The notes under the pieces are model-generated. The model was not told the origin of the DNA. It did not search any database and saw only the letters and a list, made by a program, of their open reading frames with translations. The translations under genes were made by a program, and so were the position numbers. DNA of 64,000 nucleotides. Origin: an uncultured Bdellovibrionales bacterium (GTDB lineage Bacteria > Patescibacteriota > Minisyncoccia > Moranbacterales > DUUL01). The stretch covers positions 532-64,531 of the forward strand of contig CAYFUG010000004.1 of NCBI GenBank assembly GCA_964346295.1, written 5' to 3'. Below, one piece after another: positions 7,573 through 59,420 of this stretch; position 1 is the stretch's first letter, and the number at the start of each line of letters is the position of its first letter.

Positions 7573-7632
7573 TGTAAATAAATGGTACCATGTTTAGACA
7601 TAAGATGTAAATAAATGGTACCATGTTTAGAC
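7573..7632 (+). repeat. tandem duplication (27 nt units, period 33) spanning the start codon of the next gene
   Basis: tgtaaataaatggtaccatgtttagac occurs at 7573 and again at 7606. The second copy contains the ATG of the 7623 gene. Confidence 0.8.
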
Positions 7633-8957
7633 GAAAAATCGAGAAAACTCTTTTAGAATGGAAAAATAGAGCAGAAAGGAAGCCTTTGATTTTAAGGGGT
7701 GCTCGCCAAGTAGGAAAAACTACTTTATTAGAGAGTTTTGCTCAAGAAAAATTTGCTGATTATCTGAAAATAAATTTTGATAATGGAGAAGATCTGAGGA
7801 ATTTTGAAAAAGTAGATAATTTAAAGGATTTTGAAGAAGTGGTTAAAGCCGTTTATCATAAACAGTTTAACAAAGACACTCTTGTTTTTATTGATGAAAT
7901 TCAAAATCTTCCTAATATAATCAAGCTTTTAAGGTTCTTTTGGGAAGACAGAAGAGAAATTCCAGTGGTAGCGGCGGGGTCGCTTTTGGAGGTAAAAATT
8001 AAACAAGAAGGCTTTTCTCTGCCGGTGGGAAGGGTAGAATTTGCCTATCTTTACCCCTTAAGCTTTTTTGAGTTTCTTGATGCCAGGGGAGAAGACCAAT
8101 TATTAGCCTATATTAAAGAGGCGAATTGGAAAAATCCTCTTGGTCAGACATTGCATCAAAAGTTAGAAGATTTTTTTCTGGAGTATGTTTTGTTGGGGGG
8201 TATGCCGGAGGTAGTAAAGACTTTTGTGAGGGAGGGTAGAGCAGATTTAGCAAGAATTTATCAGTCTTTGCTTCAAACTTATGCAGAAGATTTACATAAA
8301 TATTCCTCTCAATCCGAAGCTAAATACTTAAGATTTGTTTTCGATAATGCTCCTTTTTATGCTGGAAGTCTGGTTCATTATCAAAATTTTGCCCAGTCGG
8401 AATATCGCACTCGGGAGATGCAAGTAGCCTTCGAAGCCCTGCGGGATGCAATGCTCTTGGAAACCATTTTCTCTACCGGCTCTAAGCGCTTACCTTTAAC
8501 AGGTAAAAACAAGCGGCCTAAAAAGCTGCTTTTTCTAGATTCCGGGTTAGCAAGTTATAAAAGAGGTTTTGAAAGGAGTGACTTGAATTGGAACAGCTTA
8601 GATGATGCTTATAAAGGGGGAGTTTTTGAACAGACCATAGGTCAAAACCTCAAGTCTCTTTTTGCTAATGAGCAGAAAAAGCTTTTTTACTGGAGCAAAG
8701 AGAAGGCTCGGGGAGCAGCCGAGGTGGACTTCTGTTTCGAAAGTAGAGGCAAAATTGTGGGGCTGGAAGTTAAGGCGGGAGTGGCTACTCGAGCTCGTTC
8801 TTTGTTTAGTTTTGCTAGCCAAGTGGAAAATAGTGTGATTGTGAGAATTTATCCCGGACCACTTCGAAAAGAGCGAGTAAAACTAGGAGGAGATGAATTT
8901 TCTCTGGTTTCGCTCCCTTTTTACCTAATTGAAAGAGTTTTGGATTTTATAGATTAG
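7623..8957 (+). CDS. AAA+ ATPase with C-terminal DUF4143-like domain
   Basis: Walker A GARQVGKT, Walker B FIDEIQ. 444 aa. Confidence 0.7.
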   Translation: MFRRKIEKTLLEWKNRAERKPLILRGARQVGKTTLLESFAQEKFADYLKINFDNGEDLRNFEKVDNLKDFEEVVKAVYHKQFNKDTLVFIDEIQNLPNIIKLLRFFWEDRREIPVVAAGSLLEVKIKQEGFSLPVGRVEFAYLYPLSFFEFLDARGEDQLLAYIKEANWKNPLGQTLHQKLEDFFLEYVLLGGMPEVVKTFVREGRADLARIYQSLLQTYAEDLHKYSSQSEAKYLRFVFDNAPFYAGSLVHYQNFAQSEYRTREMQVAFEALRDAMLLETIFSTGSKRLPLTGKNKRPKKLLFLDSGLASYKRGFERSDLNWNSLDDAYKGGVFEQTIGQNLKSLFANEQKKLFYWSKEKARGAAEVDFCFESRGKIVGLEVKAGVATRARSLFSFASQVENSVIVRIYPGPLRKERVKLGGDEFSLVSLPFYLIERVLDFID

Positions 8958-9045: not shown

Positions 9046-9074
9046 TTGACATTTTTTTATAAATATGCTATTAT
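9046..9074 (+). promoter_or_regulatory. sigma70-type promoter P1 of GC island 1
   Basis: TTGACA, 17-nt spacer, TGcTATTAT extended -10. Preceded by an AT-rich region. Confidence 0.55.
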
Positions 9075-9127
9075 AGACCGTCCAGCTGAAATGGGGAGCA
9101 AAAACGGGGGCGAGTAGTGACACGATA

Positions 9128-9156
9128 TTGACAAGGTTTCAAAAATATGCTACACT
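9128..9156 (+). promoter_or_regulatory. sigma70-type promoter P2 of GC island 1 (tandem with P1)
   Basis: TTGACA, 17 nt, TGcTACACT. Followed by cGTCAAGCTAAGAAAAGG, which is conserved at the other two islands. Confidence 0.6.
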
Positions 9157-9939
9157 GTATCGTCAAGCTAAGAAAAGGATTCAGGCGAGCACCTTAAAAG
9201 CACTATCATAAATTATTCTTTGAGGAGAGAGTAATCTATAAAAAGAGTTTAACAATTGGACCTTGAGGGCTAAAAAGATTTTTAAATTAGCTCCCTAGAA
9301 AGGTTGTTATTCAAATTAGATTACAAAGCGGATTTATTTCTCTCTCAAAGTTTTTTCATCGTTTTCTCATCGGCAAGAACGATGGGAACCGACAAGAGGT
9401 GGGAATGAATCCGTTTTTTATTGCTTTTGTGGCAAGCCCGATGGAGGAGAGAGTTAAAATCCAAAAGTTTCCGCGGTTACGAAGTCATAACTATTGAATC
9501 GCGAGAAAGTATTGGCCGTAGTTTTTTCTACACCTTCATCGGGCTTCTCGCAAAGTCGAGGAGCGATTCTCAGCGAAGAATCACTGAACCCAATTTAGAG
9601 CGTTTTAACAGCGCTCCTACAAAGAACCTTACAATCAGGAATTTCTAGAATTTATCTAAAAATTCCTAAAACAAATGTTTAAGCTTTGCTTTTGAAAAAC
9701 CTCCCCGCCGCTATTAACGCTTTGGCGGGGTGCTAAGCAAATCTAATTCTCACTCAGCCTTCAAGGCTGGCTCGGATTGATTTGTTGGCAGAGGAGAGAG
9801 GCTCTAGCAGAAAACTAGAGTTCCCGAGAGGAGAGAGCAAGGTCGAATCATGAACATTTCTTTTGTTTTAGCCGGTCTTTTATAAAGACGGGCGGACATC
9901 TGCCGGTAAGAAGTTTCAACGCAAATTTCTTGCTGGTGA

Positions 9940-9977
9940 TGTCTCTCAACGGAGAGACTGTTCTTTGAAAATCTTAG
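9940..9977 (+). promoter_or_regulatory. boxB-like hairpin plus boxA-like antiterminator motif in leader
   Basis: GTCTCTcaacgGAGAGAC hairpin immediately followed by gttctttgaaaatcttag. Resembles rrn boxA (GCTCTTTAACAA / gram-positive TTCTTTGAAAACT). Confidence 0.5.
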
Positions 9978-10228
9978 TTACTGTTTAGTCTATTTTCTCC
10001 TTATTTTTAAGGTGAAAGGTGATTAGCTTCTTTAGGGTGGTTTGCCATTTGGTCATTGCAATTTGCAATTAGCAATTAGAAGGCAAGCCGCTGGAAAGGA
10101 GTTAATCACCAACAACCTTATTTCTAAATCCCGAAAAGGAAGGCAAAAGTAAAGGCCCGGTCCGCTTTGGGCGGATGGTCGGGAGCTACACTGACTTTTG
10201 CTGGAATTGGAGGGAGAAGGAGAGGATC

Positions 10229-11209
10229 ATGACCAATTTCGCGAGCAAATTTGACGGCAAGGGGATCCATGTAATCGCAACCGGTTCGGTGGACGGGGTT
10301 TTGACCACCGCGGCATTTTTGCGGGTGATCGGACTCCATGAGGAGAAGGCAGGGGTGGAGTTTACCCAGGCCTTCACGGTTGACAAGCTGAATCCGGCCC
10401 AGTGGCCGGAGGGGCGGCAGGTCGTTTTCGTGGACCTGGCGGTCAACAATCAGAACCCGGAGATGACGGCGGATTTCGTCCGGCGCATTCGGGAAGCGGG
10501 ACATGAGATCGTTGCCGTATGCGACGAGCACGACGCCGACGCCTGGAAGCGGGTGTTGGGGCAGGAGCCCTTTGAGGCCCTGATCGTAAAGCCCCAAAGT
10601 CAGAAAAAGGGCGAGGCCCAGTCCAGCGGCGCCATTTTATTGGAGGCGCTGGGGGACGAGGCCGATGACCACACTCGCGAGCTGTGCGAAGCCGCGAATG
10701 CCGCCGACCAAATGGATTTTTCCACCCATTTTGGCAGTTACGCCAATCGGGCGGTTAAGTCCGCCATGGGAGACAACTCCCGGCGGGTGCATTTGGCTGG
10801 GCACTTTGCTGCCAACCGGGAGCCGGACGAAGTTATCAGCAGCTGGTGCGCCGAGTACGAGGCGATTATCGCCACCCACGAGGAAGTCCTGGGAAACCGG
10901 GAAGACCTGGGAAGCGGGATCGTCCGGATCGACTGCACTGGCAAGAAGGTGGACATGACCACCTTGATGGGCCAGGTCTACGATCTGCCTGAAACGAAGG
11001 CCTGCCTGGTGATCGGGCCGGTGTATAACAAGGCCAAGGGCGGAATCGAGGTTATGGCCTCCTTCGGAACACGGATTGAAGGCTTCGACATTCAGGCCGC
11101 GATTCAGTCCGAAGGTGTTTCGGCCGGCGGCTTTGCCTCCAAGGCGAATGTCGATCTGGAAAACGAAAAGGCGGCCATTGAGGCCGTCAGAAAAGCGCTT
11201 AACGGCTAG
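10229..11209 (+). CDS. hypothetical protein, GC-rich (about 60% GC), possible degenerate DHH-like phosphoesterase
   Basis: Strong RBS GGAGGGAGAAGGAGAGG then ATG at 10229. Protein-like composition. Weak DHH-like motifs (HVIATGSVDG, VVFVDLA, AVCDEHD). Surrounding antisense and alternate-frame ORFs are treated as GC-driven artefacts. Confidence 0.55.
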   Translation: MTNFASKFDGKGIHVIATGSVDGVLTTAAFLRVIGLHEEKAGVEFTQAFTVDKLNPAQWPEGRQVVFVDLAVNNQNPEMTADFVRRIREAGHEIVAVCDEHDADAWKRVLGQEPFEALIVKPQSQKKGEAQSSGAILLEALGDEADDHTRELCEAANAADQMDFSTHFGSYANRAVKSAMGDNSRRVHLAGHFAANREPDEVISSWCAEYEAIIATHEEVLGNREDLGSGIVRIDCTGKKVDMTTLMGQVYDLPETKACLVIGPVYNKAKGGIEVMASFGTRIEGFDIQAAIQSEGVSAGGFASKANVDLENEKAAIEAVRKALNG

Positions 11210-11685
11210 ACAGTAGCCCCGTTCGTAACTCTCCTCTCTGCTATTTTTATAGTAGAGCAGCGACGAGTGCGTTCGGGGCCTAGCCAAAGATTTTCGTGTG
11301 GTTCAGGGAAAGGAGTTTGTCGGCAACATTCGACAGCTCCTTCCTTCTAAGCTCGGCAACTGAAAGTTTTCAGCTGGTGGTTTTAGAAGGGAATAATGTT
11401 TCCCTAGAGAGTGTATCTCTAAGATATGCTCTAGTTCTTTGACAAGTCCTATTTATACTAGACTCTAAGCTCTGGAGGTTTGATTCTCAAGCTTTTCCCA
11501 TTCCTTAATTTCCTTAAATTCCTAGCTTTACCATCACTGCCTGAGAGCGCAAATACGAATATCCGTTGAAGTAGCGGAAAGTTGTCTAAAATTTGTGCTT
11601 GCAAGTGGTGATGGTAAAAACCCTGGCCGGAATGTTTCCGGTGGGGGTTGGAAGTAATTTTTGAAAAAAGGAAAAAGGAGAAGTC

Positions 11686-25342: not shown

Positions 25343-28009
25343 GTGGAGAGACTTGTTGTCGATAGAAGTGAAGAGAAGAGAAACGGACCGGAAAGAAATC
25401 CGGGGTTTTTTCAGTTAGCTGCTTATCCAAAAGAAGATTGGGATTTGTTAAGGGCTGTGAATAAGGTGTTGTCGAAAGATAGTAGTCGAGTTTATGGTTT
25501 GCAGAGGGCTTTATTGGATTATCCCGAACTAGGGAACGAAGAGACAAAGGAGGTAATTTTAGAAAAGATGGAAGAAGAACTTTTAAGCATTTATTCTGAT
25601 GATTTAAGACTGGAAAATGGAATAAACTCGATAAAAGATGCTTTTGAGGGAATAAGGGGGATTTATTTAGGGAAAATAGAGACAGAGAAGGTTGTGATCG
25701 AGCGAGTCAACCAGCTTTACCCAGCGGAGTTGGAAGCCTTTGAGGATTTATTGGGCGACTTTATAGTTTATAAAAAAGTTTTACCTAAAGATGTTATTCA
25801 GGCAATTTACAGAAATAGGCTAGAGAAAATTGGAAATGTAAATCTTAATAATCTTTTTAGTTATGGAGATGTAGGCTTAGAAAAAGAGTGTTTAGGGGTT
25901 AATGAAAGAATTTTTGAAGCTCTAGAGGAGCTAGCCTTGTTTTCTGATATTTCCGAAGGTCAGAAAGCGGAACTTTTTCAGTCAGTGGCAAGGGGGTTAT
26001 TTGGAAGGGAAAAAAAGTTTTTTGTAGACCCAGAAAAGGCTTTGAGATTTGTAAGAGTCACTTTTCAAAGTCCAGAGACCAAGCGCTATGCCAAGCCACT
26101 TTTCATGAATTATTGGTGGGAGTGGGAGAATGCTATTGAAAAAATGCAGTCAGAAATTGATTTTGAAGATCAGAGCAAGGAGAATATTAGGAAAATAGCA
26201 GAGTTGGCGGAAATTTACGGGGCAGTTTACGGAGAATTGATAAAGAGGGGAATCGAACCTAATAATGATGGGGCAGTTTACATGTTGAATTTTATTAACC
26301 AGGCGGGAGGAGTAGACGATTTTTACCTTAACTTAAAGGTTAAGCAAGCCGTTTTTCTTATTCAGGCTGATGCTTGCCTTTATTATGAGGAAGGCGAGGA
26401 TTGGCAAAAGGAAGGAAGGGCGCAGTTGATTTATAGTGCGGCTCAAACTTTGGGAACTGATCTGCAGCTTAGTGGCGAGGAGCTGCAGCAATTTTTAACT
26501 GATATAAAAGGTTTTTTTGGGCAAAAATTAACTGCCGAAATTGAACCTCTTGTTAAGGGGCAGGTGGCAGCTCCGGGAGTAGAAGGGCATTTTGATGATG
26601 ATTTTGATCTGGTGCTACTGGAGGAGGAGAGAGGCAATGAAGGTGATAGGCTGAAGTTTAGCGAATTTATTAAGTTGAATTACTACGATGTTATTGAAGA
26701 GGGCGATTTTCTGGATTTGATGTTTATGCAAAATTTATTCATCAAGAAGCGAATTTCCCAGGAGTTAGGCGTGGCTTTGCATAACTTAGAGTTGAGAGCT
26801 CAGAATCAGTTTTTAAACTTCATTAAAAATGCCTCCCAGGAGAGAGTGAGACAAGTGGCAGAATTCGTAAAAAATCCAGCAGAAGAAGAGCAGCGCTTAA
26901 ACCGCCTGAGAGTCTTTCTTTCCTTGGAAGAGGGCCATTTTTCAGGAGATCAGCTATTGGACTTGCCTTCCAGGATTGATGCTGACCAAGCGCAGCAAGT
27001 TTTTGACCAGTATGGGAGACTGGTTCAAGACGCTTTTTCGGAGCAGTCGACCCTTCAAGAAGTGCTAAAGAATCCGGAGGATTTGGCCAAAATTGATCAA
27101 GAAAAAATCACTCAAAATTTGCTCTTCCGAGGCCAAAAAATCCTTCAAAGGCTAATTGAGTCTAGCGAGCCAGAGAGAGAGGCAGAAAGTGTTTTATCCA
27201 GCCTTTTAGCACAAAAATGGCAAATTCAACTAGCGGGAGCAGTTTTTAGGGAAGGGATCGAGGCTGGGATGAGTTTAGATGATTTAGAGGGTGGCAGAAT
27301 TGAGGTTTTAACCGTCCAAGACTTAATTCAAAAACCAGAATTGGTGGCTAAAATGAGGGATATTTATTCTAATAATTTCTCCAAAAAACCTGATTTGCAA
27401 GGAGCGGTTTTGCAAGGATTTGATCAAAAAATGACAGAAGGAGGCGTTAATTCGGAGTTTGCTTTGGCCTTTGTGGGCGAAGAATTGGTGGCTTTTAGCC
27501 GCAGTGATCATGTAGACGAAAAAACTCGCTATTTTGCTTCTCTAAACTCTTCTTATGGCGGTGCCAAGTTTGGAGAAGCTCTGAGGAGGAAAAGAGAGGC
27601 TCAGGTGGGAGAAAATTTTGATATTCGGGCTCATAGTGAGCCAGAAAGTGCCATGAGTACGCTGTATATTGGCCCAGAGGGAGGATTTATAGCCGATGGG
27701 GTAGAATTTAATTATCACAACACCGAGGCTAATTTATTCAGTATTACTAGACAAAAAACCCCGCCCAGTTACTATGCTTGGAGTAAGCCTCGAGAAGAGC
27801 TAGTCAAAGAGGCGAAAGAACTTGCGGATAGTGAGATAAGTAGCATTTCTCTAGAAAAGGGTAAGCCTCTGGTTTTAAGCCTCCAGGGGCTAGAAAATAC
27901 ACTAGTGGCACTAAAAACCCTACTCAATGAGCAGGGCGGCCAGTTGACCAATTATTGGTTTCAGGGCGGAAGATATTTTTTAGCTATAGAAAACCCTAAA
28001 TCAAGCTAA
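25343..28009 (+). CDS. large hypothetical protein (888 aa; start uncertain)
   Basis: Long uninterrupted ORF with no recognisable motifs. Starts with GTG at 25343; the alternative ATG near 25567 follows an AAGGAGG. Confidence 0.5.
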   Translation: MERLVVDRSEEKRNGPERNPGFFQLAAYPKEDWDLLRAVNKVLSKDSSRVYGLQRALLDYPELGNEETKEVILEKMEEELLSIYSDDLRLENGINSIKDAFEGIRGIYLGKIETEKVVIERVNQLYPAELEAFEDLLGDFIVYKKVLPKDVIQAIYRNRLEKIGNVNLNNLFSYGDVGLEKECLGVNERIFEALEELALFSDISEGQKAELFQSVARGLFGREKKFFVDPEKALRFVRVTFQSPETKRYAKPLFMNYWWEWENAIEKMQSEIDFEDQSKENIRKIAELAEIYGAVYGELIKRGIEPNNDGAVYMLNFINQAGGVDDFYLNLKVKQAVFLIQADACLYYEEGEDWQKEGRAQLIYSAAQTLGTDLQLSGEELQQFLTDIKGFFGQKLTAEIEPLVKGQVAAPGVEGHFDDDFDLVLLEEERGNEGDRLKFSEFIKLNYYDVIEEGDFLDLMFMQNLFIKKRISQELGVALHNLELRAQNQFLNFIKNASQERVRQVAEFVKNPAEEEQRLNRLRVFLSLEEGHFSGDQLLDLPSRIDADQAQQVFDQYGRLVQDAFSEQSTLQEVLKNPEDLAKIDQEKITQNLLFRGQKILQRLIESSEPEREAESVLSSLLAQKWQIQLAGAVFREGIEAGMSLDDLEGGRIEVLTVQDLIQKPELVAKMRDIYSNNFSKKPDLQGAVLQGFDQKMTEGGVNSEFALAFVGEELVAFSRSDHVDEKTRYFASLNSSYGGAKFGEALRRKREAQVGENFDIRAHSEPESAMSTLYIGPEGGFIADGVEFNYHNTEANLFSITRQKTPPSYYAWSKPREELVKEAKELADSEISSISLEKGKPLVLSLQGLENTLVALKTLLNEQGGQLTNYWFQGGRYFLAIENPKSS

Positions 28010-28762
28010 TTTTCGGGAATAATCCCAGTGAAATTCGAACAGGGATTTGTGCATTTGGTAAATATTGGGATCTTGGATTAGCATAGCGATTTTGTGTTCT
28101 TCTGAAAGGGAGATGTAAATGACTTTTCCTTCGTAAATTTGCATTACAGAACCCGAGAAGGGGTATTTTTCTTGATCAATAAGCTTAATTTCTGTAATAT
28201 CTCGCAGATAATTTTGCAAGTAATTTTTGGCAAAGGCAGAGTCCAGGACCAGAACCTTTTTGTTAAGGTTAAGCTTGGATCTTTTTTTCATGTAGCACTG
28301 ATTGATTTTTTCGGTGTATTTGATAACAGCCTCCAGGTCGGCATAAGTGTAAATAATTTCTTGACTGGTGAGAGTGTCTTCCAGGGCCTCTTGAATGCCT
28401 TCTAGTCCCTCAAAATAGCGGACGTCAGGTTTCTGAGAAACTAAATTAAATTCTGATGTCAGTGCATCTAGATTGGCCGCTAGGTTTTTATGAGTTTTTT
28501 CTAGTTGGGAAGATTGATCGCGGAGTAATTCTTCTAATTGATTAGGGTGTTGAGGATAAAAATGAGTCAATTTTCCCTTTTTTTTGCTAATTACCAGGCT
28601 TTTTTCTTCTAAAGATTCTAAAACATTGTAAACCACCCCCTTTTGGAGGGTGGTTTTTTTAATGATTTCGCTGGCAGGAACTGCTCCAGAGCGAAGCAGG
28701 AATTCGTAAATAGTGGCTTCATTAGGGGTCAGTCCAACTTGAGTAAGGATGTCTTGGTACAT
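28001..28762 (-). CDS. TrmB-family HTH transcriptional regulator, divergent from GC island 2
   Basis: N-terminus ILTQVGLTPNEATIYEFLLRSGAVPASEI is typical of the TrmB HTH. Paralogous to 39074..39868 and 58052..58837. Confidence 0.7.
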   Translation of the reverse strand: MYQDILTQVGLTPNEATIYEFLLRSGAVPASEIIKKTTLQKGVVYNVLESLEEKSLVISKKKGKLTHFYPQHPNQLEELLRDQSSQLEKTHKNLAANLDALTSEFNLVSQKPDVRYFEGLEGIQEALEDTLTSQEIIYTYADLEAVIKYTEKINQCYMKKRSKLNLNKKVLVLDSAFAKNYLQNYLRDITEIKLIDQEKYPFSGSVMQIYEGKVIYISLSEEHKIAMLIQDPNIYQMHKSLFEFHWDYSRKLA

Positions 28763-28877
28763 GTTATTGAAGGTTAGTATTCTGTAAAAAGACTATTTTA
28801 AATGTATTTTTAAAAGATATTTCTACTTTAAATAAGGTAAAATAATAGATTAAGTTAAATTTTTAGTCATTAAATAC

Positions 28878-28906
28878 TTGACAATTTTTTAATAATATGC
28901 TACAAT
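28878..28906 (+). promoter_or_regulatory. sigma70-type promoter of GC island 2
   Basis: TTGACA, 17 nt, TGcTACAAT. Embedded in the TTGACAA...TTGTCAA palindrome. AT-rich UP-like region upstream. Followed by GTCAAGCTAAGAAAAGG. Confidence 0.65.
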
Positions 28907-29108
28907 GCCTTGTCAAGCTAAGAAAAGGGTAAAACTCCGAAGCTTGAAGAACTGAAAGGTTCTAGCCAAATAAGAATAGTTGGCTCTTAGTACATTATAT
29001 CGAGAATAACCACACAACACAAACCACAGGAAAGTTTCTTGCAAGGCTTTTCTAGAGGTGTTTTTTGTGTTGTGGAAACATTCTCTAGCAAGAGCCCTGC
29101 AAAAAACT

Positions 29109-29154
29109 CTCCTATCACGGGGAGTTTTTTGTTCTTTGAAAACTCAGAAATCAG
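29109..29154 (+). promoter_or_regulatory. boxB-like hairpin plus boxA-like antiterminator
   Basis: CTCTCCtatcacGGGGAG hairpin, then gttctttgaaaactcagaaatcag. Confidence 0.55.
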
Positions 29155-29335
29155 TAAAGTGGTTTTCTCCTAGGGCTTTTGTCCTTGGTAGGCAGCTTAG
29201 TGCTTATGAAAGTTTGTAAGCGCTGAGCTGTTTATCAAGCAAGGAAAGCCCGGGCGTCCTAGTCACCGGGAAATTTTACAAAAAAATTATCCGGGCTGTA
29301 CTAGGCAGCCCATTTTTCAGAAAAGGAGAAAGACC

Positions 29336-29785
29336 ATGAAGAAGAATTTCAAACTCGTTCCCGGATCCAAAGGTGCTCGCCGCTCCTTCGCCGTTACTTG
29401 TGGCCTGCAAGAGGGCTACGAAGACGGAACCCTTCACACTTTCCAGGAGGCCGTTGAGGTTGCCTTGGAATGGATGAGGGGGCGGGCCGCCGCCGGTGAG
29501 CAGTACTTGACTGGGACCTTCGTCCAGGGTGAGGTGGTGTTTGCCTGGCCCGAAGGCCCTGGCAAGGCCGGTGGCGGTCACGAGGCGACGGTGATTTACC
29601 AGGGCGAGGTCAGCCCGATCTACAACGCGGGCATGACCGATGAAGAGGCCGTCGAGATCCTCAATGACCTGGCGGCCCATCTGGGGACCGCTCTGGGCCA
29701 GACCCGGGTCTATGTCGCCTTGTGCGACCAGATCTGGATTCTCCAGGCGGAAGAGACGGAAACCCCCACCGGGGAGACCGTCTAG
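29336..29785 (+). CDS. hypothetical protein, GC island 2 gene 1 (149 aa)
   Basis: RBS AAAAGGAGAAAG then ATG. About 60% GC. Protein-like composition. Confidence 0.55.
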   Translation: MKKNFKLVPGSKGARRSFAVTCGLQEGYEDGTLHTFQEAVEVALEWMRGRAAAGEQYLTGTFVQGEVVFAWPEGPGKAGGGHEATVIYQGEVSPIYNAGMTDEEAVEILNDLAAHLGTALGQTRVYVALCDQIWILQAEETETPTGETV

Positions 29786-30072
29786 CGGCCGTTTTTCTGT
29801 CCCCCTTCAATTTGCTTTTGGCATTTAGGAGGGGGCAGCGCTGATTTCTGAGTAAGAGGGTTCAAGGAAGGCGGATTCACATTGTGCGTCCGCCTCCTTT
29901 TCTCAAATCTCAAGTTTAATTGAGGTTTGAGATGAAGGATTGCACCTTGAAAAATTTTCCCTATTTCTCCTTTCAATTGCCTTTTTTCACTTAGTGAAAA
30001 CAAATCCAACTTCGTTGATTGAAGTGAGGCAATTGACGATTTTCAACTGAAAAAAGGGAGAGGAGAAGGGGC

Positions 30073-30513
30073 ATGAAAATTCGAGTCAGGGATCCCAAAG
30101 AGGCGGCCGCCATTACCGGTGGCTGCACCTTTGAACCGGCTATCGGTTGGTGGACCTATACCGACCAGCCGGAAGAGCACGGAAGGCTGGGGCGGCTGTT
30201 TGAGGGGGAGCGGGATGCTTTATATATCCCCACACTCCAGAAAAATGGTCAGCCGGTGGCGGAAGAGGCCATTGCCCGCTTTAAGGTGCGAGCCAAGGAG
30301 TTGGGTTTTGGTGAAATCTCCGGAGCCTCCGGTATGTGGATTTTGTCCGACACGGGGGAGGCCCAGGTCGAGTACATCTGGATCTGTTGGGCTTCCCAAG
30401 TTTCGGATGAGACGCGGTCTCAGATGGCCGCGTTGGCAGAGGAAATCAAAGCCGCCACTAACCAGGACTGCGTGGCCTGGGAAAACGGCGGCCAGCTATT
30501 TTTCACGGGATAA
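30073..30513 (+). CDS. hypothetical protein, GC island 2 gene 2 (146 aa)
   Basis: RBS GGGAGAGGAGAAGGGG then ATG. Confidence 0.55.
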   Translation: MKIRVRDPKEAAAITGGCTFEPAIGWWTYTDQPEEHGRLGRLFEGERDALYIPTLQKNGQPVAEEAIARFKVRAKELGFGEISGASGMWILSDTGEAQVEYIWICWASQVSDETRSQMAALAEEIKAATNQDCVAWENGGQLFFTG

Positions 30514-30526
30514 GGAGGAGACACTT

Positions 30527-31306
30527 ATGAAACGGATTTTTGTTGTCCCTATCAACGATGGGGAGGCGGTAGAGATTAGGAATCTCCTACAGGATGGCGG
30601 TGAAGTGGTTGTGGAAAGCGTCCTCCGTTGGGGAGCCCGATGGGAGAAGCTGGAACCGGAGGTGGTGGCGGAGATCGAAAGGCTTCGCTCCCTTAATCCG
30701 GGAGTTCAGATCTACGGCGTGGAGCTGGCCGGCCCCAATCAGTGGGGGGCTCGCAACATCGACCACCACAAGTACCAGGATGAGGATCGGAGTAATTCCA
30801 AGTCCTCCCTGGAGCAAGTGGCGGAGTTGTTGGGCGTCCAGCTGACCCGGCACCAATTTTTGGTTTCGGAGAATGACAAGGGTTGGATCCCGGCGCTAAT
30901 AGCGGCCGGAGCCAGTCCCGACGAGATCGAACTGGTGCGGGCGCAGGATCGCCAGGCCCAGGGGGTTACCCCTGACGACGAAGCCCAGGCTCTTCGGGAT
31001 ATCGAGGCGGCCCAGTGGCAAGGTCGGAAGGTCTGGCTCCAGTGTCTCAAGGGGGCCACCTCGGCCCACACTGACCGGCTCTTTGGTCAGTTTGACGAAG
31101 CCCTGACGGTGGATGGGGTCAACGGAAAGTGGATCTATTTTGGTCCGCGATCCGAAGATTTCTTCGCCCTCACCGAAGGGGGCACCGAAGGGATACGCTG
31201 GAAAAGCCCTCGACCAGGGGGGTACTCCGGGGCGGAAAAGCCCCAGGAGGAGACCCAGGAAGCAATCCGGAATTTTTTTGGGAGTAATTCCCTTACCTCT
31301 TTTTAG
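30527..31306 (+). CDS. hypothetical protein, GC island 2 gene 3 (259 aa)
   Basis: RBS TAAGGAGGAG then ATG at 30527. The longer track ORF from 30119 has an R/P/W-rich N-terminal extension that overlaps gene 2 in another frame and is judged spurious. Confidence 0.55.
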   Translation: MKRIFVVPINDGEAVEIRNLLQDGGEVVVESVLRWGARWEKLEPEVVAEIERLRSLNPGVQIYGVELAGPNQWGARNIDHHKYQDEDRSNSKSSLEQVAELLGVQLTRHQFLVSENDKGWIPALIAAGASPDEIELVRAQDRQAQGVTPDDEAQALRDIEAAQWQGRKVWLQCLKGATSAHTDRLFGQFDEALTVDGVNGKWIYFGPRSEDFFALTEGGTEGIRWKSPRPGGYSGAEKPQEETQEAIRNFFGSNSLTSF

Positions 31307-31457
31307 CTAAGACGCACTAAGGAGAAGGACAAAATCAGCGTCGGGTTCAGATGGGCTGGCGAGAACCTCGTTAGCCCATCCTTTCCTAGTTCAGCACTAA
31401 AGTGGTGGTGGGCTAAGAAGGGATTAACGAAAAATCACCAAAAAAGGAGGCCCCAAA

Positions 31458-32003
31458 GTGTCTTTAACAAAAGAGCAATTCTCCAGATTAGCGAAGGTAG
31501 CGCTCCAGGTGGCAAAAGAGCGGGGCCAGAGCTTTTACGGGTGGGTTAATCCGCCTCAAATAGAGAGTGGAAAATTGACCCATGACTCCGGAAAAGGACC
31601 CCAGAAGATTTCTCCGGAAGAATCCCTGGCGATTTATAAGAGGAAGCTGGACGGGGTCTATGGGGAGAGATTCATTACCTCTTTGGGCACAATAGCTGCT
31701 TTGATAGCCAATGGCTATTCGGTGCGGCTGGTGCAGTTTTACAAGGAGGTAGGCCTGCCTTTTGACGCGGAGGGTTGGCTAGTGGTGATAATCGAAACCA
31801 TGCCAATTTTCCATGTTTCGCCGGGGGATCTGCGCCTGGAGCAGGTGGCGGATCTGGTTGAGGTGCTAGATGACAATCAAGCGCCCGATGTCTGCCACAA
31901 GGGCACCGACAAGCCGGGAGAGTTTGCGGCTCTTTTGCAGGGCTCTCTTTCTCCGGAGTTGGATTTGGTCAAGATTGCCCAGGAAAACAGTGGCAATTTT
32001 TGA
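31458..32003 (+). CDS. hypothetical protein, GC island 2 gene 4 (181 aa, GTG start)
   Basis: RBS AAAAAGGAGG, 7 nt, then GTG. Confidence 0.5.
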   Translation: MSLTKEQFSRLAKVALQVAKERGQSFYGWVNPPQIESGKLTHDSGKGPQKISPEESLAIYKRKLDGVYGERFITSLGTIAALIANGYSVRLVQFYKEVGLPFDAEGWLVVIIETMPIFHVSPGDLRLEQVADLVEVLDDNQAPDVCHKGTDKPGEFAALLQGSLSPELDLVKIAQENSGNF

Positions 32004-32104
32004 TTCTGTCTACTTTCGATTTTCGTTCATTTCCAATGGATCAGGTGTCATTGTGCATCTGATCCGGAATTCTGAGCTTAGCTCTATTAAGAGGTAGGTT
32101 CAGC

Positions 32105-32128
32105 GTTCTTTAAAAACTCAGAAATCAG
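32105..32128 (+). promoter_or_regulatory. second boxA-like motif, internal to the island 2 operon
   Basis: gttctttaaaaactcagaaatcag lies between gene 4 and gene 5, as a spacer boxA does in rrn operons. Confidence 0.5.
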
Positions 32129-32269
32129 GAAAATCCAACTTTCTATCTTTTCTCTTTGTCTTCTAAAAGTTGTTGGTTACCCGAGAGAATTTAATCTAGT
32201 TAATGAACTGAATTAGCCAGTTAAGTTTTTTTGGGCAACCAACAACCAAGGAAAGAGAAGGAGGAAGAC

Positions 32270-32518
32270 ATGAGATACCAAGGAGCGAGAGAATACAAGG
32301 GCCAGAGGGTGGAAATCCAGCTGCGGGCTGGGGGCAATAATCCCGGAAACGCCTCGGTAACGCTGGTTATCAAAATGGATGGCCAGGAGGTTTTTCGGAG
32401 AAGTGCCGGCCGAGACGGAATGGGCCAGGTGGAAGCCCTGGCCGTGGCTGAAGTGGCCAAGGTCCAAGAGTTGGGCGAAGAAATATATATCGTCCAGTTC
32501 AATGCCGAAGCTATCTAG
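32270..32518 (+). CDS. hypothetical protein, GC island 2 gene 5 (83 aa)
   Basis: RBS GAAGGAGGAAG then ATG at 32270. Confidence 0.5.
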   Translation: MRYQGAREYKGQRVEIQLRAGGNNPGNASVTLVIKMDGQEVFRRSAGRDGMGQVEALAVAEVAKVQELGEEIYIVQFNAEAI

Positions 32519-32704
32519 CCCTTACCTTAGAATTTTTTTGATTTCTAGGCCCTCTCCATCAGGCCTCCTGCGAAGTTAGCAGGTTTTAAAAATTTGGATG
32601 GTAGTCCGAGCGGCGGAAATGACTCAAAACTATCCGCAAAATTAGCCCTGACAATCAGGGCCGGCCGAGGCAAGCGCAATGCCGCTTTAGCCTAAGAGGC
32701 CACC

Positions 32705-32836
32705 AAAAGGCCCGAAAGAGTCTGGCCAACGCGCTAAATCTTTCGGAGGGACGAACTTGTTGAACACAACATTTTCGTCCCCTCTACTAGCAACTTAATT
32801 TGAGACTTGATCTTTTATTGAGTTGCTTGAGAGAAT
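32705..32836 (+). repeat. 132-bp direct repeat, copy 1
   Basis: Near-identical (2-3 mismatches) to 34004..34136. Contains a GGGACGAA-cttgttgaacacaacatt-TTCGTCCC hairpin. Confidence 0.85.
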
Positions 32837-32924
32837 CTATTTTGAAAGGCGAGTTCTTTGAAATATATCCAAAGCTTCATTGTAATCTTTGGGTACTTCA
32901 ACCAAACCAGAAAAGGGGGATGCC

Positions 32925-33971
32925 ATGGGTAAATTTCAGGAAATCACACTGGAATTATTGTTGGAAAATGAAGTTTTGAGGAAGTATCTTCTCAAGGCAA
33001 GAATTGGTCCAGCTAAAAAAGGCGACGGTGCTTTTGTGGGGACTTATGATATTGCCCCGAAGGAGTTTCGGAGTTTTGGAATTGTTTTGCCCAGGGGCGG
33101 GATGATTATTCCAGGGGCAGATCCTGTCAAGTTAAAGGAAATGGTCAAGGAGCCTGAGCGCCGGCGTGAGGCGGAGGACTTGGCAAATCGTCGTGCTGTT
33201 GAAAAAGATTATCTCAATCAGGTGAAAGAGATAATTGCTGAAGCTGGCCTCACGGATATTGAAGTGGTGGAAGAAGACGGAGTGGACTTCCATAGTATCG
33301 GCGCCACCAGCTGGCACAAGAGCTTTTTGGTAAGAGAAGGAGAGAAAATCTTCAGTCTTCACAGCGAAGAGGAGCCGTATCGTGGCTTAGATGACGATGG
33401 TTCGTACGAGCCGTGGAGGACGGAGTTTACTCCGTTGGAAGAGGTGAAATCCTTCCTTGAAGAGGAGGCGCGTCTTGTTGGTCCGAGAAAAATGTTTGCT
33501 GATCGGATCAGGCGGCTTATTGATATAAGCCACAATGTTGGTCAGCAAGGGCCAGATGAAACTGGCTGGGATCGCCCTCGAGTGGAATTATTTTTGTACG
33601 ATGACTATAAAAAAGGCAGGGACTGGGGTTTTTTCGGTCATCGTTGTCAGGGTATCTCTTCGGCCCACAGGATTTACTATCGAAAAAAACTCTATGAGAT
33701 TACCGAAGAAGGCATTTCTCGCCTTGAGTATGAAATCGGAGAAAGGGAGGAGGCGCTAGAAGCAAGACGAGCGATGCTCAAAAGACTCTTCGAAGAGAAG
33801 GGCAGAGTTTTTGAGGAACTCAAAGAAGAGAAAGATTGCTATGCCGGAAAGTCACTGGCAACCGGCAAGGCAAAGTACGATGAGTGGACTGAAACGCGCT
33901 ACTTTCTCGGCGACACAGAAGTTACCGAGGAAGAGCGTGATTGGCTGAAGGGCTTACCTAAGGATAATTAG
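32925..33971 (+). CDS. hypothetical protein (348 aa) bracketed by the 132-bp direct repeats
   Basis: RBS AAAAGGGGGA then ATG at 32925. Charged soluble protein with no recognisable motifs. Confidence 0.55.
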   Translation: MGKFQEITLELLLENEVLRKYLLKARIGPAKKGDGAFVGTYDIAPKEFRSFGIVLPRGGMIIPGADPVKLKEMVKEPERRREAEDLANRRAVEKDYLNQVKEIIAEAGLTDIEVVEEDGVDFHSIGATSWHKSFLVREGEKIFSLHSEEEPYRGLDDDGSYEPWRTEFTPLEEVKSFLEEEARLVGPRKMFADRIRRLIDISHNVGQQGPDETGWDRPRVELFLYDDYKKGRDWGFFGHRCQGISSAHRIYYRKKLYEITEEGISRLEYEIGEREEALEARRAMLKRLFEEKGRVFEELKEEKDCYAGKSLATGKAKYDEWTETRYFLGDTEVTEEERDWLKGLPKDN

Positions 33972-34373: not shown

Positions 34374-36866
34374 CTACAATACGGCGCTGGCGGCAATCTT
34401 TTCATTTTTCTTAAGCCGCATAATGCGCACTCCTTGAGTAGCGCGATTAAGGACAGAAATCTTGTCAATGGGAGTGCGAATGATTTGTCCTCGGTTAGAG
34501 CTAACAATCAAATCCGCTTTTTCTTCTTGATCTTCTTGAGTGATGACATGAGCCGCTACCAAGGGGCCGGTTTTTTCCGTCACGAAAGCAGTTTTAATGC
34601 CGCTACCAGCGCGAGACTGAGTTTTGTAGCGCTTGAGGGGAGTTCGTTTGCCGTAGCCGTTTTCCATCAGCACTAGCAATTGATCTTCTTTTTTAGCACC
34701 CGCTTCTTCTTTTCTCTTGCGGATCACGCTCATACTGACAATTTCATCCTCCTTCTTAAGGCGGATAGCTTTGACACCAGCGGCAACTCGCCCCATGGGA
34801 CGAGCCTGACTTTCTTTAAAGCGAATTGATTGGCCCTGGTGAGTAGTCAAGATTAAGTCATCGGTGCCATCGGTGAGACCGACCCAACCCAAGGCGTCAT
34901 CTTCGTCCAAGCGAATAGCGATCATGCCTCCGCGACGCACATTCTCAAAATCCTTGAGGGCGGTTTTTTTGATTTTGCCCTTACGAGTTTGCATCACCAT
35001 GTATTGACACCGGGTATCTTTGGAGACAGCTAGGATGGAAGTTATCTTTTCATCTGGGGAGATTTGAATAAAATTGACAATTGCCTGACCTTTGGCGGTA
35101 CGGGAAGACGGGGGAATTTCGTAAGTTTTCAATTTAAAGACTTGGCCACCACTAGTGAAGAAAAACAGATCGTCGTGAGTCATAGTGGCGAGTACTTTGT
35201 CTACGGCGTCGCCTTCTTTAATATTGCCGCCGGCCACTCCTTGACCACCGCGTTTTTGGCTGCGCAAAATGGTGGGGGCGATGCGTTTAATGTAACCATC
35301 CTCAGTAAAGCTGATAATAGTCTCTTCGTTGGCTACCAAATCCTCTTGAGAAAATTCTCCGGCATTGGAATCGATAATTTTAGTGCGGCGTTCGTCGCCG
35401 TACTTCTTTTTGATCTCTAGGAGTTCCTCTTTGATGATACTCAAGATTTTTTGAGGGTCGGCTAGGATAGTTTCTAATTCTTCAATTAGTTTTAGCTTTT
35501 CCGCTAGCTCTTCCTCAATTTTTTGGCGCTCTAGACCGGCGAGGGTTTGCAAGCGCATCTCCAAAATTGCTTCGGCTTGCCGGTCGGAAAATTTGAATTT
35601 GGCCACTAAGTTCTCGTGAGCCTTTTCTTTGGTAGCGGATCCTCGAATAGTCTCAATTACCTCATTAATGTGATCCAGAGCTTTCTTGAGTCCTTCCAGA
35701 ATGTGAGCTCGCTCCTGGGCCTTCCTTAATTCAAATTCAGTACGGCGAGTAACTACCGTTTGGCGGTGAGCTACATAATATTCCAGCACCGACTTCAAGT
35801 TCAGCACTCGGGGCTCCAGGCCATCCACCAAGGCCAGCATATTCAAATGGAAAGTTTTTTGTAGCTCGGTCATAGAGTAGAGCTGGTTTAAAACTTTCTT
35901 GGGAAAAGTATCTTTTTTGAGCTCGACTACAATTCGGACACCATCCTTGTCAGATTCGTCTCGTAAGTCTTTAATGCCTTCAATTTTACCGGTCTTTACT
36001 AACTGGGCAATTTTTTGAATCAGAGTTGCTTTGTTAGTTTGGTAGGTAACTTCGCTTACTACAATTTGGAATTGACCGTTTTTAACTTCCACAATATCTG
36101 CCTGAGCCCTTGTAACCATGCCGCCTCGACCCGTGGAATAAGCGTTCAAAATGTCCTGGCGATTATAGAGAATGCCAGAGGTGGGAAAGTCGGGACCTTG
36201 AATGTATTTAACTAATTCTTCAATGGTGATATCGGGGTTTTCAATATAAGCAGTGATACCATCCACTAGCTCGCTCAGATTATGAGGAGGAATATTGGTA
36301 GCCATCCCAACCGCGATTCCTAGGGCGCCATTCAAAAGTAATTGAGGAAGTTTGGCGGGTAAGGTGGCTGGTTCTTTGCGAGTTCCGTCGTAGTTTTCTT
36401 TCCAATCCACAGTCTCTTTCTCAATATCAAAGAGCATTTCGTCGGAAATAGATTGAAGCTTAGCCTCGGTGTAACGCATGGCGGCTGGGTTGTCGCCGTC
36501 CATAGAACCAAAGTTTCCTTGGCCTTCTACTAGAGGGTAGCGCAAAGAGAAATCTTGAGCCATGCGAACCATGGCAATGTAAACAGAAGCGTCGCCGTGA
36601 GGATGATATTTACCCAATACCTCACCGACTACGGTGGCGCTTTTGCGGAATTTGGCACTAGAACGCAGACCCAGCTTCCACATGGCATATAAGATGCGGC
36701 GTTGCACCGGCTTGAGGCCATCCCGGACATCCGGCAGGGCGCGGGTAACAATTACGCTCATGGCATAAGAGAGATAGGATTCTTCCATTTCCGAGACAAT
36801 GGGGCGAGGTTGGACTTTTCCGATATTGCTAGTTTCGTTGGATTCGTTTTGGTTGTTGGGTTGCAT
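34374..36866 (-). CDS. gyrA: DNA gyrase subunit A
   Basis: N-terminus ...[33 protein letters not shown]... and the C-terminal beta-pinwheel repeats. Confidence 0.95.
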
Positions 36867-55868: not shown

Positions 55869-55967
55869 GGAGTTTTAAATTTTGAAAGGATTCGAGTGAA
55901 TTATCAAGATACTTTTTGGAAAAATTGTTTAATTTGATTTTTTTAAACTAAAATACTACAATTCCTA

Positions 55968-56358
55968 GTCGCTTGGTCTAGCTTTGTCTAGATCAAGAGG
56001 AAAGTCTGGACACCAGCCGGCTTTCAATTGGAAGCCAGTTAAAAGGGTAATCGGTAACGCCGATCGGGCTCGATGTGAGTCGAGTCAAGGGATAGCGCCG
56101 CAGAGACAATACTAGTTAATGCTCTGCATTAACGAAAGGTGAAAAGTGTCGAGGGGCTCATTTCTTCGGAATTTGAGCTACTCGACTCGGCTATTGGCGA
56201 CAATAGTTTGTGGCAAGCCCTACCCGGTGCAAGGCCGTGTCTTCTCGTAAAAGAGAGGAAGTGCCGCTAAAGTTCAGCAGTGATGTTGAATGTAGATAAA
56301 TGACTAGGCCAATTTACTTTGGTAGATTGGTACAGAATCCGGCTTATTTTATCTAGTT
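55968..56358 (+). ncRNA. rnpB: RNase P RNA (bacterial type A-like)
   Basis: P4 strands AGAGGAAAGTCTGGAC ... ACAGAATCCGGCTTAT. Also conserved GGTAACGCC, AAAGGTGAAAAG and GGCAAGCCC...GCAAGGCC elements. The ends are approximate. Confidence 0.65.
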
Positions 56359-56658
56359 TTCAGTTAGTAGTTTTCAGTTTTTAGGCCGCATGGAGGCAGC
56401 GCAGGTTATAGAAGCGAGTCCTTTGTAAAAATCTCGAGCGTTGTTTACAGCTTTCTTTATTAGTAGAACACCTCTATTTTTCTTCATGAGGCATTTTGTC
56501 TCCTATATAAGGCAATAAACGCCGTCATTAAAACTGGAGCGGTTTGAAATTGAAATTTAAAAATGTAAACAACGCTAAGGAATCTTACAAGTTATTTCTT
56601 ATCTTGAATTTTCTGGTGTAGTATATGCTGAGCTAAGATAGAAAATAAAATCAAAAGA

Positions 56659-57144
56659 ATGGGTCAATTTGTTTATTTTATACCCCATTTATTCCCACTG
56701 ATTGTCGGAGGGGTGGTAATTTTCTCTCTGGGACATTTTAGCTTTAAATTCTTTATGCACCTTGTGAATAGGAGGTTTTATGTAGCTCCTAGGGAAGGCT
56801 CTATTCTTGGTAAGACGGCAGCTTTCTTGTCTTTGGGATTTTTACCAATTTTTTTCTTAGTAGGAATGCTGGAGTCTAAATTGGATGGATTTTTGAATGA
56901 CCTAATGTTAAATTCTAGTATTTTTCAGCGGGGGACTTTTTTAAGAAAAGCTATCTTTTATCTAGAGCAAAGTTCACTTGCTCTGATTTTTCTAGTTGTT
57001 TATTTAATTTTTTACTCATTTTTAATCTTTCTTTCATATTCCAAAGAGTCAAATAAAAAGTGGGCCTTTCTTTCAGAAGTTGTAATTTTTATTGGGATAG
57101 GCTATTTGGGCTATTTGCTTTTAGTGGCATTTGGAGTGGGATGA
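56659..57144 (+). CDS. hypothetical integral membrane protein (161 aa)
   Basis: Four or five TM helices. Overlaps mreC by 14 nt. Confidence 0.45.
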   Translation: MGQFVYFIPHLFPLIVGGVVIFSLGHFSFKFFMHLVNRRFYVAPREGSILGKTAAFLSLGFLPIFFLVGMLESKLDGFLNDLMLNSSIFQRGTFLRKAIFYLEQSSLALIFLVVYLIFYSFLIFLSYSKESNKKWAFLSEVVIFIGIGYLGYLLLVAFGVG

Positions 57145-59119: not shown

Positions 59120-59148
59120 TTGACAAATATTAATTATTATGCTACAAT
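59120..59148 (+). promoter_or_regulatory. sigma70-type promoter of GC island 3
   Basis: TTGACA, 17 nt, TGcTACAAT. Within the TTGACAA...TGTCAAGCTCAGAAAAGG palindrome. About 150 bp of very AT-rich sequence upstream. Confidence 0.65.
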
Positions 59149-59239
59149 GCTCTGTCAAGCTCAGAAAAGGTTCAGATTCGTGGGTTTTGATTGTTGGAAT
59201 AATTTTGAGATCCGGAAAAAGGCTTAAAAAGCTTTTCTC

Positions 59240-59285: not shown

Positions 59286-59420
59286 TTACTTCGAGATTCT
59301 TACTTGGAAATTGATAAAGAGGGTAGTTATCAGTCTTTTGAGGCTCTAAATTGCAAAATTTGGGGCTTGAGATGACTGATAACTTATTTTTTATTTTCTT
59401 TTATCAACAAGGAGGATATC

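Follow-up and report, generated by a model that had tools for sequence, protein, structure and literature searches.

TrmBL2 is built from a winged helix-turn-helix (wHTH) domain, a helix and an alpha/beta domain, and has no sugar-binding subdomain (PMC4877046). In the TrmBL2 dimer the two wHTH domains occupy adjacent major grooves, a tetramer covers about 2 turns of DNA, and at higher concentration the protein binds non-specifically as a filament (PMC4877046). Two proteins of similar predicted fold are encoded in a stretch of 64,000 nucleotides (nt) from an uncultured bacterium (contig CAYFUG010000004.1 of assembly GCA_964346295.1; this whole stretch is called the window here), each next to one of three islands of cargo genes. 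The initial annotation of the window proposed that the promoter of each island is embedded in a palindrome, TTGACAA/TTGTCAA, which the regulators would bind. The analysis presented here gives the two arms of this palindrome different roles. In the model that we favour, with confidence slightly better than even, the upstream arm is a consensus -35, the downstream arm corresponds to the conserved start of a structured leader RNA with a boxA-like element, and the TrmBL2-like regulator acts at or upstream of the -35.

Island promoters and their relatives

The -35 hexamer lies within TTGACAA at all three islands (9128 in island 1, 28878 in island 2 and 59120 in island 3), as initially annotated. 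By itself TTGACAA is unremarkable, with 18 copies in the window against 10 expected. What island promoters 1-3 and a degenerate fourth copy at 9046 have in common is the order TTGACA(A)-N17-TAcAaT followed by a box, (C/T)GTCAAGCT(A/C)AGAAAAGG. The box TGTCAAGCTMAGAAAAGG is found with at most one mismatch at 9161-9178, 28911-28928 and 59153-59170 (0 expected by chance), and the pattern TTGACA-N14-TGNTAYAMT-N5-GTCAAG is exact at the three island sites and has 2 mismatches at 9046-9085 (0 expected by chance). The hexamer TTGACA, the 17-nt spacer and a TGn in front of a TATAAT-like -10 are the hallmarks of a sigma-70-type extended -10 promoter, and the family consensus is TTGACA-N14-TGcTAtAcT. The sites in the window are as follows.

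28878-28906, + strand: island 2 cargo promoter, an exact match to the pattern; -35 TTGACA at 28878-28883, 17-nt spacer, extended -10 TGcTACAAT at 28898-28906
28911-28928, + strand: island 2 +1 box TGTCAAGCTAAGAAAAGG with the predicted start at G28912 (5'-GUCAAGCU...); in the proposed palindrome it forms the downstream arm
59120-59170, + strand: island 3 promoter and box; -35 at 59120-59125, -10 at 59143-59148, +1 box CTGTCAAGCTCAGAAAAGG with its G at 59154
9118-9178, + strand: island 1 main promoter; TGAC box at 9118-9121, -35 at 9128-9133, -10 at 9151-9156, box CGTCAAGCTAAGAAAAGG at 9161-9178
9046-9085, + strand: degenerate tandem promoter upstream in island 1 (TTGACA ... TATTAT ... GTCCAG), 2 mismatches

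The tandem promoters of island 1 are 82 bp apart (9046-9085 and 9128-9167), and tandem copies likewise occur in two related loci, L199 (209 bp apart) and L250 (881 bp apart). Two features place the inferred start at the G of the GTCAAG box (28912, 59154 and 9162): how far this G lies from the -10, and the T after it, which in relatives pairs, often as a wobble, and would therefore be transcribed. The +1 box is best read as a conserved transcript 5' end, 5'-GUCAAG(C/A)U(G/A)A....

A scan of metagenome contigs, made on DNA only, with TTGACA-N14-TGNTANNNT-N5-GTCAAGMTNA gave at least 120 stretches, where by our own estimate a handful would be expected by chance. The matches listed, after deduplication, together with the window sites and three loci found through the regulator protein (L122, L124 and L126), form a set of 106 promoters. 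A divergent TrmB-like gene starts less than 700 nt upstream of 37 of the 68 distinct promoters that have at least 1100 nt of upstream sequence (tblastn), and inspection revealed neighbours that tblastn had missed, at least 5 more divergent TrmB-like N-termini and 2 co-oriented ones, which brings the divergent genes to about 42 of 68 (about 62%). The identity of these regulators to those of the window is as low as 22-30%. The association is strongly supported and both real and general: this promoter type adjoins TrmB-like regulator genes in many uncultivated bacteria. GTCAA is also strongly enriched 81-100 bp upstream of the cargo -35 (32 observed against 1.9 expected). There it represents the -35 of the promoter from which the TrmB-like gene is read, which stands back to back with the cargo promoter (TTGACA-N17-TATAAT on the opposite strand, about 85-100 bp upstream). 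GTCAAG was not found after the -10 of these consensus promoters of the TrmB-like genes themselves, and it thus marks the cargo promoter or its transcript specifically and is not a generic feature of starts or of strong promoters.

The island copies are conserved in blocks: they agree in the -35, the TGn-extended -10 and the 17-mer, and diverge in the spacers and beyond the 17-mer. It follows that they are under selection and not recent duplicates. The opposite case, three recent copies with an accidental palindrome and no functional link to TrmB, could appeal to the frequency of TTGACAA in the window and to the complementarity being a single observation, made a posteriori on one family consensus. 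It is contradicted by the block-wise conservation, by more than 100 independent metagenomic copies in which TrmB-like neighbours are enriched, and by the neighbouring TrmB promoters, which have no box. This explanation is largely refuted and very improbable.

In a genome collection scanned with the 17-mer GTCAAGCTNAGAAAAGG only single chance matches in unrelated taxa were found, none of them with a full promoter. Viral contigs gave four unrelated promoter-like matches and no TrmB-like relatives, and the cassette is not evidently viral. An rRNA promoter or rRNA operon leader was rejected as an identity for the element, as no 16S signature was found around the 106 promoters up to a distance of 5 kb. 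Literature searches for promoters of Patescibacteria, for TrmB in the candidate phyla radiation and for GTCAAG together with boxA returned nothing relevant.

The palindrome and the TrmBL2-like regulators

According to the initial annotation the inverted complement of the -35 lies just downstream of the -10 in each island. The box is indeed present at all three, and an inverted repeat of 8 bp is found in island 2 only, where it is perfect (CTTGACAA/TTGTCAAG). It shrinks to 6 bp in island 3 (TTGACA/TGTCAA) and to 5 bp in island 1 (TTGAC/GTCAA), below the reporting length of the repeat finder, and it is broken in the upstream copy of island 1 (GTCCAG). Across the 106 promoters mirror-image half-sites do not emerge. 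The shared part is TTGAC/GTCAA only, and the bases that would extend the symmetry match in 20-37% of promoters (T before GTCAAG in 30 of 106, T one position further out in 21, C before TTGACA in 39). The arms are 33 bp apart from centre to centre, against about 10-11 bp for adjacent major grooves, a distance that does not fit a dimer of the TrmBL2 fold. A general palindrome scan from -110 to +60 found AT-rich palindromes everywhere.

It is conceivable that a tetramer or higher oligomer of the TrmB-like protein binds TTGACAA at the -35 and TTGTCAA at +1 as one operator, over about 3 helical turns, and thereby occludes RNA polymerase. The strong linkage between regulator and promoter would fit, as would the exact complementarity of GTCAA to TTGAC, which is specific to the cargo promoter. 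The arms, about 3.1 helical turns apart, lie on the same face of the DNA, a TrmBL2 octamer model spans about 3.5 turns (PMC4877046), and additional TGAC/GTCA boxes upstream suggest TGAC as a possible recognition core. Against this stand the symmetry of the family, which is at most 5 bp and no more than 5 bp in island 1 itself, and the dimer of the TrmBL2 fold, which touches sites about 10 bp and not 33 bp apart. A single operator would furthermore have to serve regulators that are 22-57% identical, with variable recognition helices and several paralogs per genome; variant +1 boxes are compensated downstream and not in the -35 (see below), and island 1 carries the box with no adjoining regulator. 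We consider such an oligomer improbable, and TTGACAA/TTGTCAA as an operator is not supported. The initial annotation had named an intrinsic -35 plus a conserved transcript start, with no conserved symmetry in homologs, as what would refute its proposal, and this is essentially what is observed; the co-variation with the regulator that it suggested looking for exists for the promoter type and not for the palindrome itself. An antisense promoter that uses the inverted TTGAC at +1 as its -35 was also considered and rejected, as the base composition of the 106 promoters (positions 10-15) shows no conserved -10 at the needed distance.

The TrmB-family genes reported beside islands 2 and 3 are borne out by matches to Pfam TrmB; island 1 has no divergent TrmB gene. 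Together with a box upstream of the island 2 promoter they are located as follows.

28001-28762, - strand: island 2 regulator (253 aa) with wHTH, long dimerisation helix and C-terminal alpha/beta domain; Pfam TrmB 1.2e-10
58052-58837, - strand: island 3 regulator (261 aa); Pfam TrmB 6.6e-11
28866-28869, + strand: GTCA box about one helical turn (12 nt) ahead of the -35; a candidate half-site that would pair with the TGAC of this hexamer

The two regulators are 36% identical over their full length, and both score above the gathering threshold for the N-terminal wHTH (PF01978), the region to which detectable sequence similarity to the TrmB family is confined. An AlphaFold model of the island 2 regulator (36 sequences; pLDDT, the predicted local distance difference test score, 90.8) has the wHTH, a helix at 75-109 and the alpha/beta domain, so that the dimerisation helix and C-terminal domain of the TrmB family are present in the predicted structure. 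With this predicted model as query, a full-length fold search of the PDB (Foldseek) gave TrmBL2 as best match (E 9e-16) and TrmB as the next (E 2e-9). The sugar-sensing TrmB/TrmBL1 subgroup was rejected, as the proteins have 253 and 261 aa against about 340 and reach 16-23 bits in the NCBIfam equivalogs, where the cut-offs are 500-650. The window regulators model as TrmBL2-like. In the recognition helix of 39 TrmB-like proteins R41 and Y45 are conserved and the other positions are 31-56% conserved; this variation may at most weakly disfavour one operator for all paralogs.

When the promoters are reduced to a non-redundant set of 75, 19 of them have a TGAC or GTCA beginning 9-15 nt ahead of the -35 (2.4 +/- 1.4 in shuffled sequences), among them island 2 (GTCA at 28866-28869) and island 1 (TGAC at 9118-9121). 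Some subfamilies have repeats of their own, TTGACC-N6-TTGACA or TTCACA-N5-TTGACA. As the box and the TGAC in the -35 lie one helical turn apart, the pair fits the geometry of the TrmB family, and this upstream box is a better candidate operator than the palindrome. It keeps alive a weaker form of the earlier idea, in which the -35 is embedded in a regulator site whose partner box lies upstream and not at +1.

Thirty-seven homologs of the island 2 regulator were found. Synteny is conserved at the 13 distinct loci, where the TrmB-like gene is convergent with a gene for a large protein of no known family (633-1189 aa) and on its other side a divergent unit of promoter, leader and cargo is either present or missing. 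GTCAAG follows the -10 by five bases in 4 of the 13 (island 2, L122, L124 and L126), and variants of the box are GTCGAG (L252), GTCATG (L258), GTTAAG (L251/L256) and ATCAAAC (L259). Three of the 13 sites (L123, L254/255 and L260) are "empty", with a gene for a thiamine pyrophosphate (TPP) enzyme upstream and no cargo promoter. The TrmB-like gene and the convergent gene are retained even there. In the window the large convergent partner is encoded at 25343-28009 on the + strand; it and its counterparts (L122-L126, L251-L260) always slightly overlap the island-2-type TrmB-like gene, and it has no match in Pfam or NCBIfam. At island 1 the place of the TrmB-like gene is taken by an AAA_14/DUF4143 ATPase gene (7623-8957, + strand), which lies upstream of the promoter in the same orientation and is divergent in L148.

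Leader RNA and boxA-like elements

The region after each promoter has no convincing open reading frame (ORF) over about 1.07 kb in island 1, 0.42 kb in island 2 and 0.27 kb in island 3. None of the leaders matches an Rfam family at gathering or permissive thresholds. Those of islands 2 and 3 are predicted to fold far more stably than shuffled sequences. The features of the leaders are listed below, with minimum free energy (MFE) where it was obtained and z relative to shuffles.

28912-29335, + strand: untranslated structured leader of island 2 (about 424 nt), MFE -167 kcal/mol, z = -9.4 (dinucleotide shuffles)
28913-28947, + strand: 5'-terminal stem-loop of island 2; UCAAGCU (28913-28919) with AGCUUGA (28941-28947), 7 bp, 21-nt loop
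29107-29154, + strand: island 2 hairpin CUCUCC/GGGGAG (boxB-like), then the boxA-like GTTCTTTGAAAACTCAGAAATCAG at 29131-29154
32105-32128, + strand: second extended boxA-like copy of island 2 (GTTCTTTAAAAACTCAGAAATCAG), placed before the following cargo gene
32853-32864, + strand: third, weaker boxA-like copy of island 2
59154-59420, + strand: structured leader of island 3, z = -5.1
59262-59285, + strand: hairpin and boxA-like GTTCTTTGAAAACTTAGAAATCAG of island 3
9162-10228, + strand: leader of island 1, about 1.07 kb
9960-9971, + strand: boxA-like GTTCTTTGAAAA of island 1, after the hairpin TCTCTC/GAGAGA
11434-11445, + strand: further boxA-like copy of island 1, a near-copy ahead of a later cargo gene

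Pairing of the +1 box was counted with a purpose-written script and with single-sequence folds. Of about 100 promoters, 43 have a complement of GTCAAGMT 3-52 nt further downstream that can form at least 6 of 8 Watson-Crick pairs, where shuffles give 17.5. The seventh base of the box covaries with its partner (A-T 16, C-G 24, mismatched 3), and where the partner of T2 or T8 is not Watson-Crick it is G in 15 cases and another base in 5 (1:2 expected), the pattern that G-U wobble in the sense transcript would leave. Across the family the loop measures 3-44 nt, and in single-sequence folds the 5'-terminal hairpins of relatives have stems from nucleotide 1 of GUCAAG and z of -3 to -6. Where the box varies the -35 stays TTGACA and compensation is found in the downstream arm: the ATCAAAC of L259 is matched by GTTTGAT 26 nt downstream and the GTCAT of L258 by ATGGC. 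The +1 box thus covaries with its downstream partner and not with the -35. A 5'-terminal stem with covariation and wobble is present in the family and, within the window, in island 2 only.

The pairing data would also fit a palindrome in the DNA. The +1 box and its partner (GTCAAGnT ... AnCTTGAC) could form a roadblock operator from +1 to about +25 for a TrmB-like dimer; several relatives have the two arms separated by 3-8 nt, which would suit a dimer, and the conserved sequence of the arm suggests sequence-specific recognition. Over the whole family, however, arm spacings of 3-44 nt are incompatible with one rigid dimer geometry, many members (islands 1 and 3 included) have no second arm, and the bias of mispairs to G opposite T (15 against 5) is a strand-specific signature of RNA. 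A roadblock of this kind is quite unlikely. Recognition of the GTCAAG box at the DNA level in any form, the element that the roadblock shares with the operator spanning -35 and +1, may be granted a minor chance.

Exact GTTCTTTGAAAA occurs in all three leaders (9960, 29131 and 59262), each time preceded by a hairpin; a longer form, GTTCTTT(G/A)AAAACT(C/T)AGAAATCAG, is shared by islands 2 and 3. In the 107 kb downstream of the 106 promoters the pattern [GT][CT]TCTTT[AG]A[AC]A has 45 sense and 2 antisense matches, against 0 and 3 in the 107 kb upstream. Fifteen of the boxA-like matches come immediately after the hairpin, at 10-58 nt from the start (for example GTCAAGCTTAAAAAGCTTGA TGCTCTTTAAAAA in L216). 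The leaders carry, on the sense strand, an element that resembles the boxA consensus. Each cargo gene or gene group within an island is preceded by a boxA-like element of its own, and two of the island 2 copies are near-identical over 24 nt. The copies could be repeated antitermination sites, or else mark cassettes that each brought their own leader. The island 2 hairpin at 29107-29130 is flanked by A6 and T6 (AAAAAACUCUCC...GGGGAGUUUUUU) and because of these flanks resembles an intrinsic or bidirectional terminator, and it may be an attenuation point; those of islands 1 and 3 have no T-run.

The long leaders have further recurrent features. Purine motifs, GGAGAGAG or AGAGAGAG, lie at 9222-9232, 9441-9455, 9790-9803 and 9826-9838 with no start codon after them, and motifs of this type also occur in the leaders of L122, L126, L203, L215 and L251. 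On the opposite strand of the L126 leader (about 2430-2640) an ORF inside a hairpin reads, by eye, like a GIY-YIG nuclease, and repeat elements of the GTCATCCTGAGC type are found in the leaders and intergenic regions of L122 and L124. Long leaders seem to tolerate selfish insertions.

In the model that we favour each island opens with a promoter of sigma-70 type that is close to consensus (TTGACA, 17-nt spacer, TGn-extended -10), and the GTCAAG box would be the transcript 5' end and not the second half-site of a symmetric operator. In many members the box forms the 5' arm of a predicted stem-loop starting at RNA nucleotide 1-2, and a boxA-like element follows 10 nt to about 1 kb downstream. 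The 5' hairpin would shield the long untranslated leader from 5'-end-dependent decay, and the boxA-like element would recruit Nus factors, so that RNA polymerase could read through 0.25-1 kb of structured leader and the successive cargo genes. The divergent TrmBL2-like proteins would most likely control the promoter at or just upstream of the -35, via the TGAC/GTCA box or by coating the promoter region.

Several observations weigh against this model. It gives no reason why GTCAA should be the exact complement of the -35 core TTGAC. The G start is a prediction, and a start at A+4 would truncate the 5' hairpin. In the window the 5' stem is convincing in island 2 only (7 bp, z -1.2), being weak in island 3 and lacking in island 1, and about half of the family has no obvious local hairpin, so that the hairpin alone cannot explain the conservation of GTCAAG. 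GTCAAG was a selection criterion for the metagenome sample, so that how well the box is conserved can be judged only from the roughly 10 loci found through the protein, and these hold 4 exact boxes and 5 variants (1-2 substitutions, one of them also shifted by 2 nt). The regulator may not be dedicated to cargo, since three orthologous loci keep the TrmB-like gene and have no cargo promoter. Lastly, the leader element is identified as boxA-like by its resemblance to the boxA of rRNA leaders, and no rRNA gene lies downstream of the boxA-like leaders of the 106 promoters.

Cargo genes and comparison with known systems

The cargo genes of island 2 are located as follows.

29336-33971, + strand: island 2 cargo genes, mostly of no known family

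The GC content here is 51-62% over 29201-32000, against about 42% for the whole window. Almost all cargo of the window is without a family in Pfam and PADLOC; a DHH-like protein of 259 aa with an NIDHH motif (about 30530-31306, + strand) matches PADLOC DHH_CorA (3.2e-31), described there as a DHH hydrolase, potential RNase, CorA-associated. Between loci there is almost no similarity among the 332 ORFs downstream of the 106 promoters, and about 15 of 112 cargo proteins scanned against Pfam have a match, every match different. The matches include Csx3, an HNH toxin and several housekeeping genes, the last of which probably belong to unrelated chance promoters. The cargo side exceeds the upstream side by a mean of 3.5 GC points (37 of 49 loci, Wilcoxon p 4e-5). 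The island 1 cargo protein at 10229-11209 (+ strand) has homologs in L122 (2261-3307, - strand) and L238 (10072-10956, + strand), which suggests that cargo genes move between cassettes. One cargo family thus stands behind different cassettes, with a TrmB neighbour in L122 and none in island 1. The island 3 cargo protein at 59421-60554 (+ strand; 377 aa, about 60% GC) falls in a 90%-identity cluster whose other members, on other contigs (P0044 and P0045), have 576 aa; the copy may be truncated, or the gene mobile. An integron-like platform was rejected, since no recombinase was found among the island ORFs of the window and the 112 cargo proteins, there is no attC, and the repeats between genes are boxA-like and not GTTRRRY cores. 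As GyrA (34374-36866, - strand) and MreC (57131-58018, + strand) flank them, the islands are chromosomal, amid core genes. The sole Rfam family in the window is bacterial RNase P RNA class A (55953-56363, + strand, 144.6 bits), and no tRNA genes were found there.

It is tempting to go further and to see in the cassette an undescribed, lineage-wide expression platform for horizontally acquired genes, with bacterial TrmBL2 homologs as dedicated silencers or sensors of the foreign genes at phased TGAC/GTCA boxes, a speculation that we hold to be doubtful. Its hosts would be uncultivated and probably candidate phyla radiation bacteria, to judge by groundwater and leachate sample types alone. The platform would join four components (the TrmBL2-like regulator, the consensus promoter, the 5'-GUCAAG box of fixed sequence with its hairpin, and the repeated boxA-like elements) and would exist in several copies per genome, each driving different, mostly family-less and GC-enriched cargo, with orthologous sites empty or filled with other cargo. 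Boxes at about -46, -35 and +1 would be recognised, and the arms of the palindrome would be part of this longer array. Should the cassette work as in the model that we favour, promoter, transcript 5' end, antitermination signal and regulator could all be read from the sequence of organisms that cannot be cultured, a rare case. The cassette would then mark dozens of hotspots for insertion and expression of genes of unknown function, offer a handle on accessory or defence functions in uncultured genomes, and give TrmBL2-type proteins, which are known from archaea as chromatin proteins, a role in bacteria as regulators of specific loci.

Among described systems, defence islands with BrxR/CapW-type regulators likewise have a wHTH regulator divergent from variable, apparently horizontally acquired genes, and the DHH_CorA match in the window and the Csx3 and HNH toxin in the cargo of other loci add to the likeness. 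The regulators differ in being TrmBL2-like and not of the WYL fold, most of the cargo has no defence annotation, and the shared promoter-leader architecture has no counterpart in BrxR/CapW-type loci. This architecture resembles Nus antitermination of the rrn type or the phage nut type, where a hairpin and then a boxA-like element (here GTTCTTTGAAAA or TGCTCTTTAAAA) stand near the 5' end of a long transcript; as in these systems, the element of the cassette is strictly strand-specific and repeated ahead of successive genes. It differs in that no rRNA gene lies downstream, the cargo being protein-coding and hypervariable, and in that the 5' arm of the hairpin is conserved and not its loop; a role of Nus factors is here predicted from sequence.

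The hairpin at the transcript start may be compared with the stabiliser stem-loops of the ompA, ermC and aprE leaders. In both the stem lies within 1-2 nt of the 5' end, which is a predicted one here, and the stem of the cassette has a variable loop length with pairing kept by covariation and wobble. In contrast to what a stabiliser requires, the sequence of its 5' arm is fixed across distant genomes, and a stabilising role is putative.

For the regulators the closest described protein is TrmBL2, a chromatin protein and global repressor of Thermococcales. They share with it and the TrmB family the wHTH (PF01978), the long dimerisation helix and the alpha/beta C-terminus, and with TrmBL2 in particular the length of about 255-265 aa and the best full-length fold match; like TrmBL2, they are without the extra sugar-binding subdomain of TrmB and TrmBL1. 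On the other hand they are only 18-19% identical to TrmBL2 and are bacterial, multi-copy and paralogous within one genome, and whereas TrmBL2 is a single abundant protein that coats the whole genome, each of them is tied to a specific divergent promoter.

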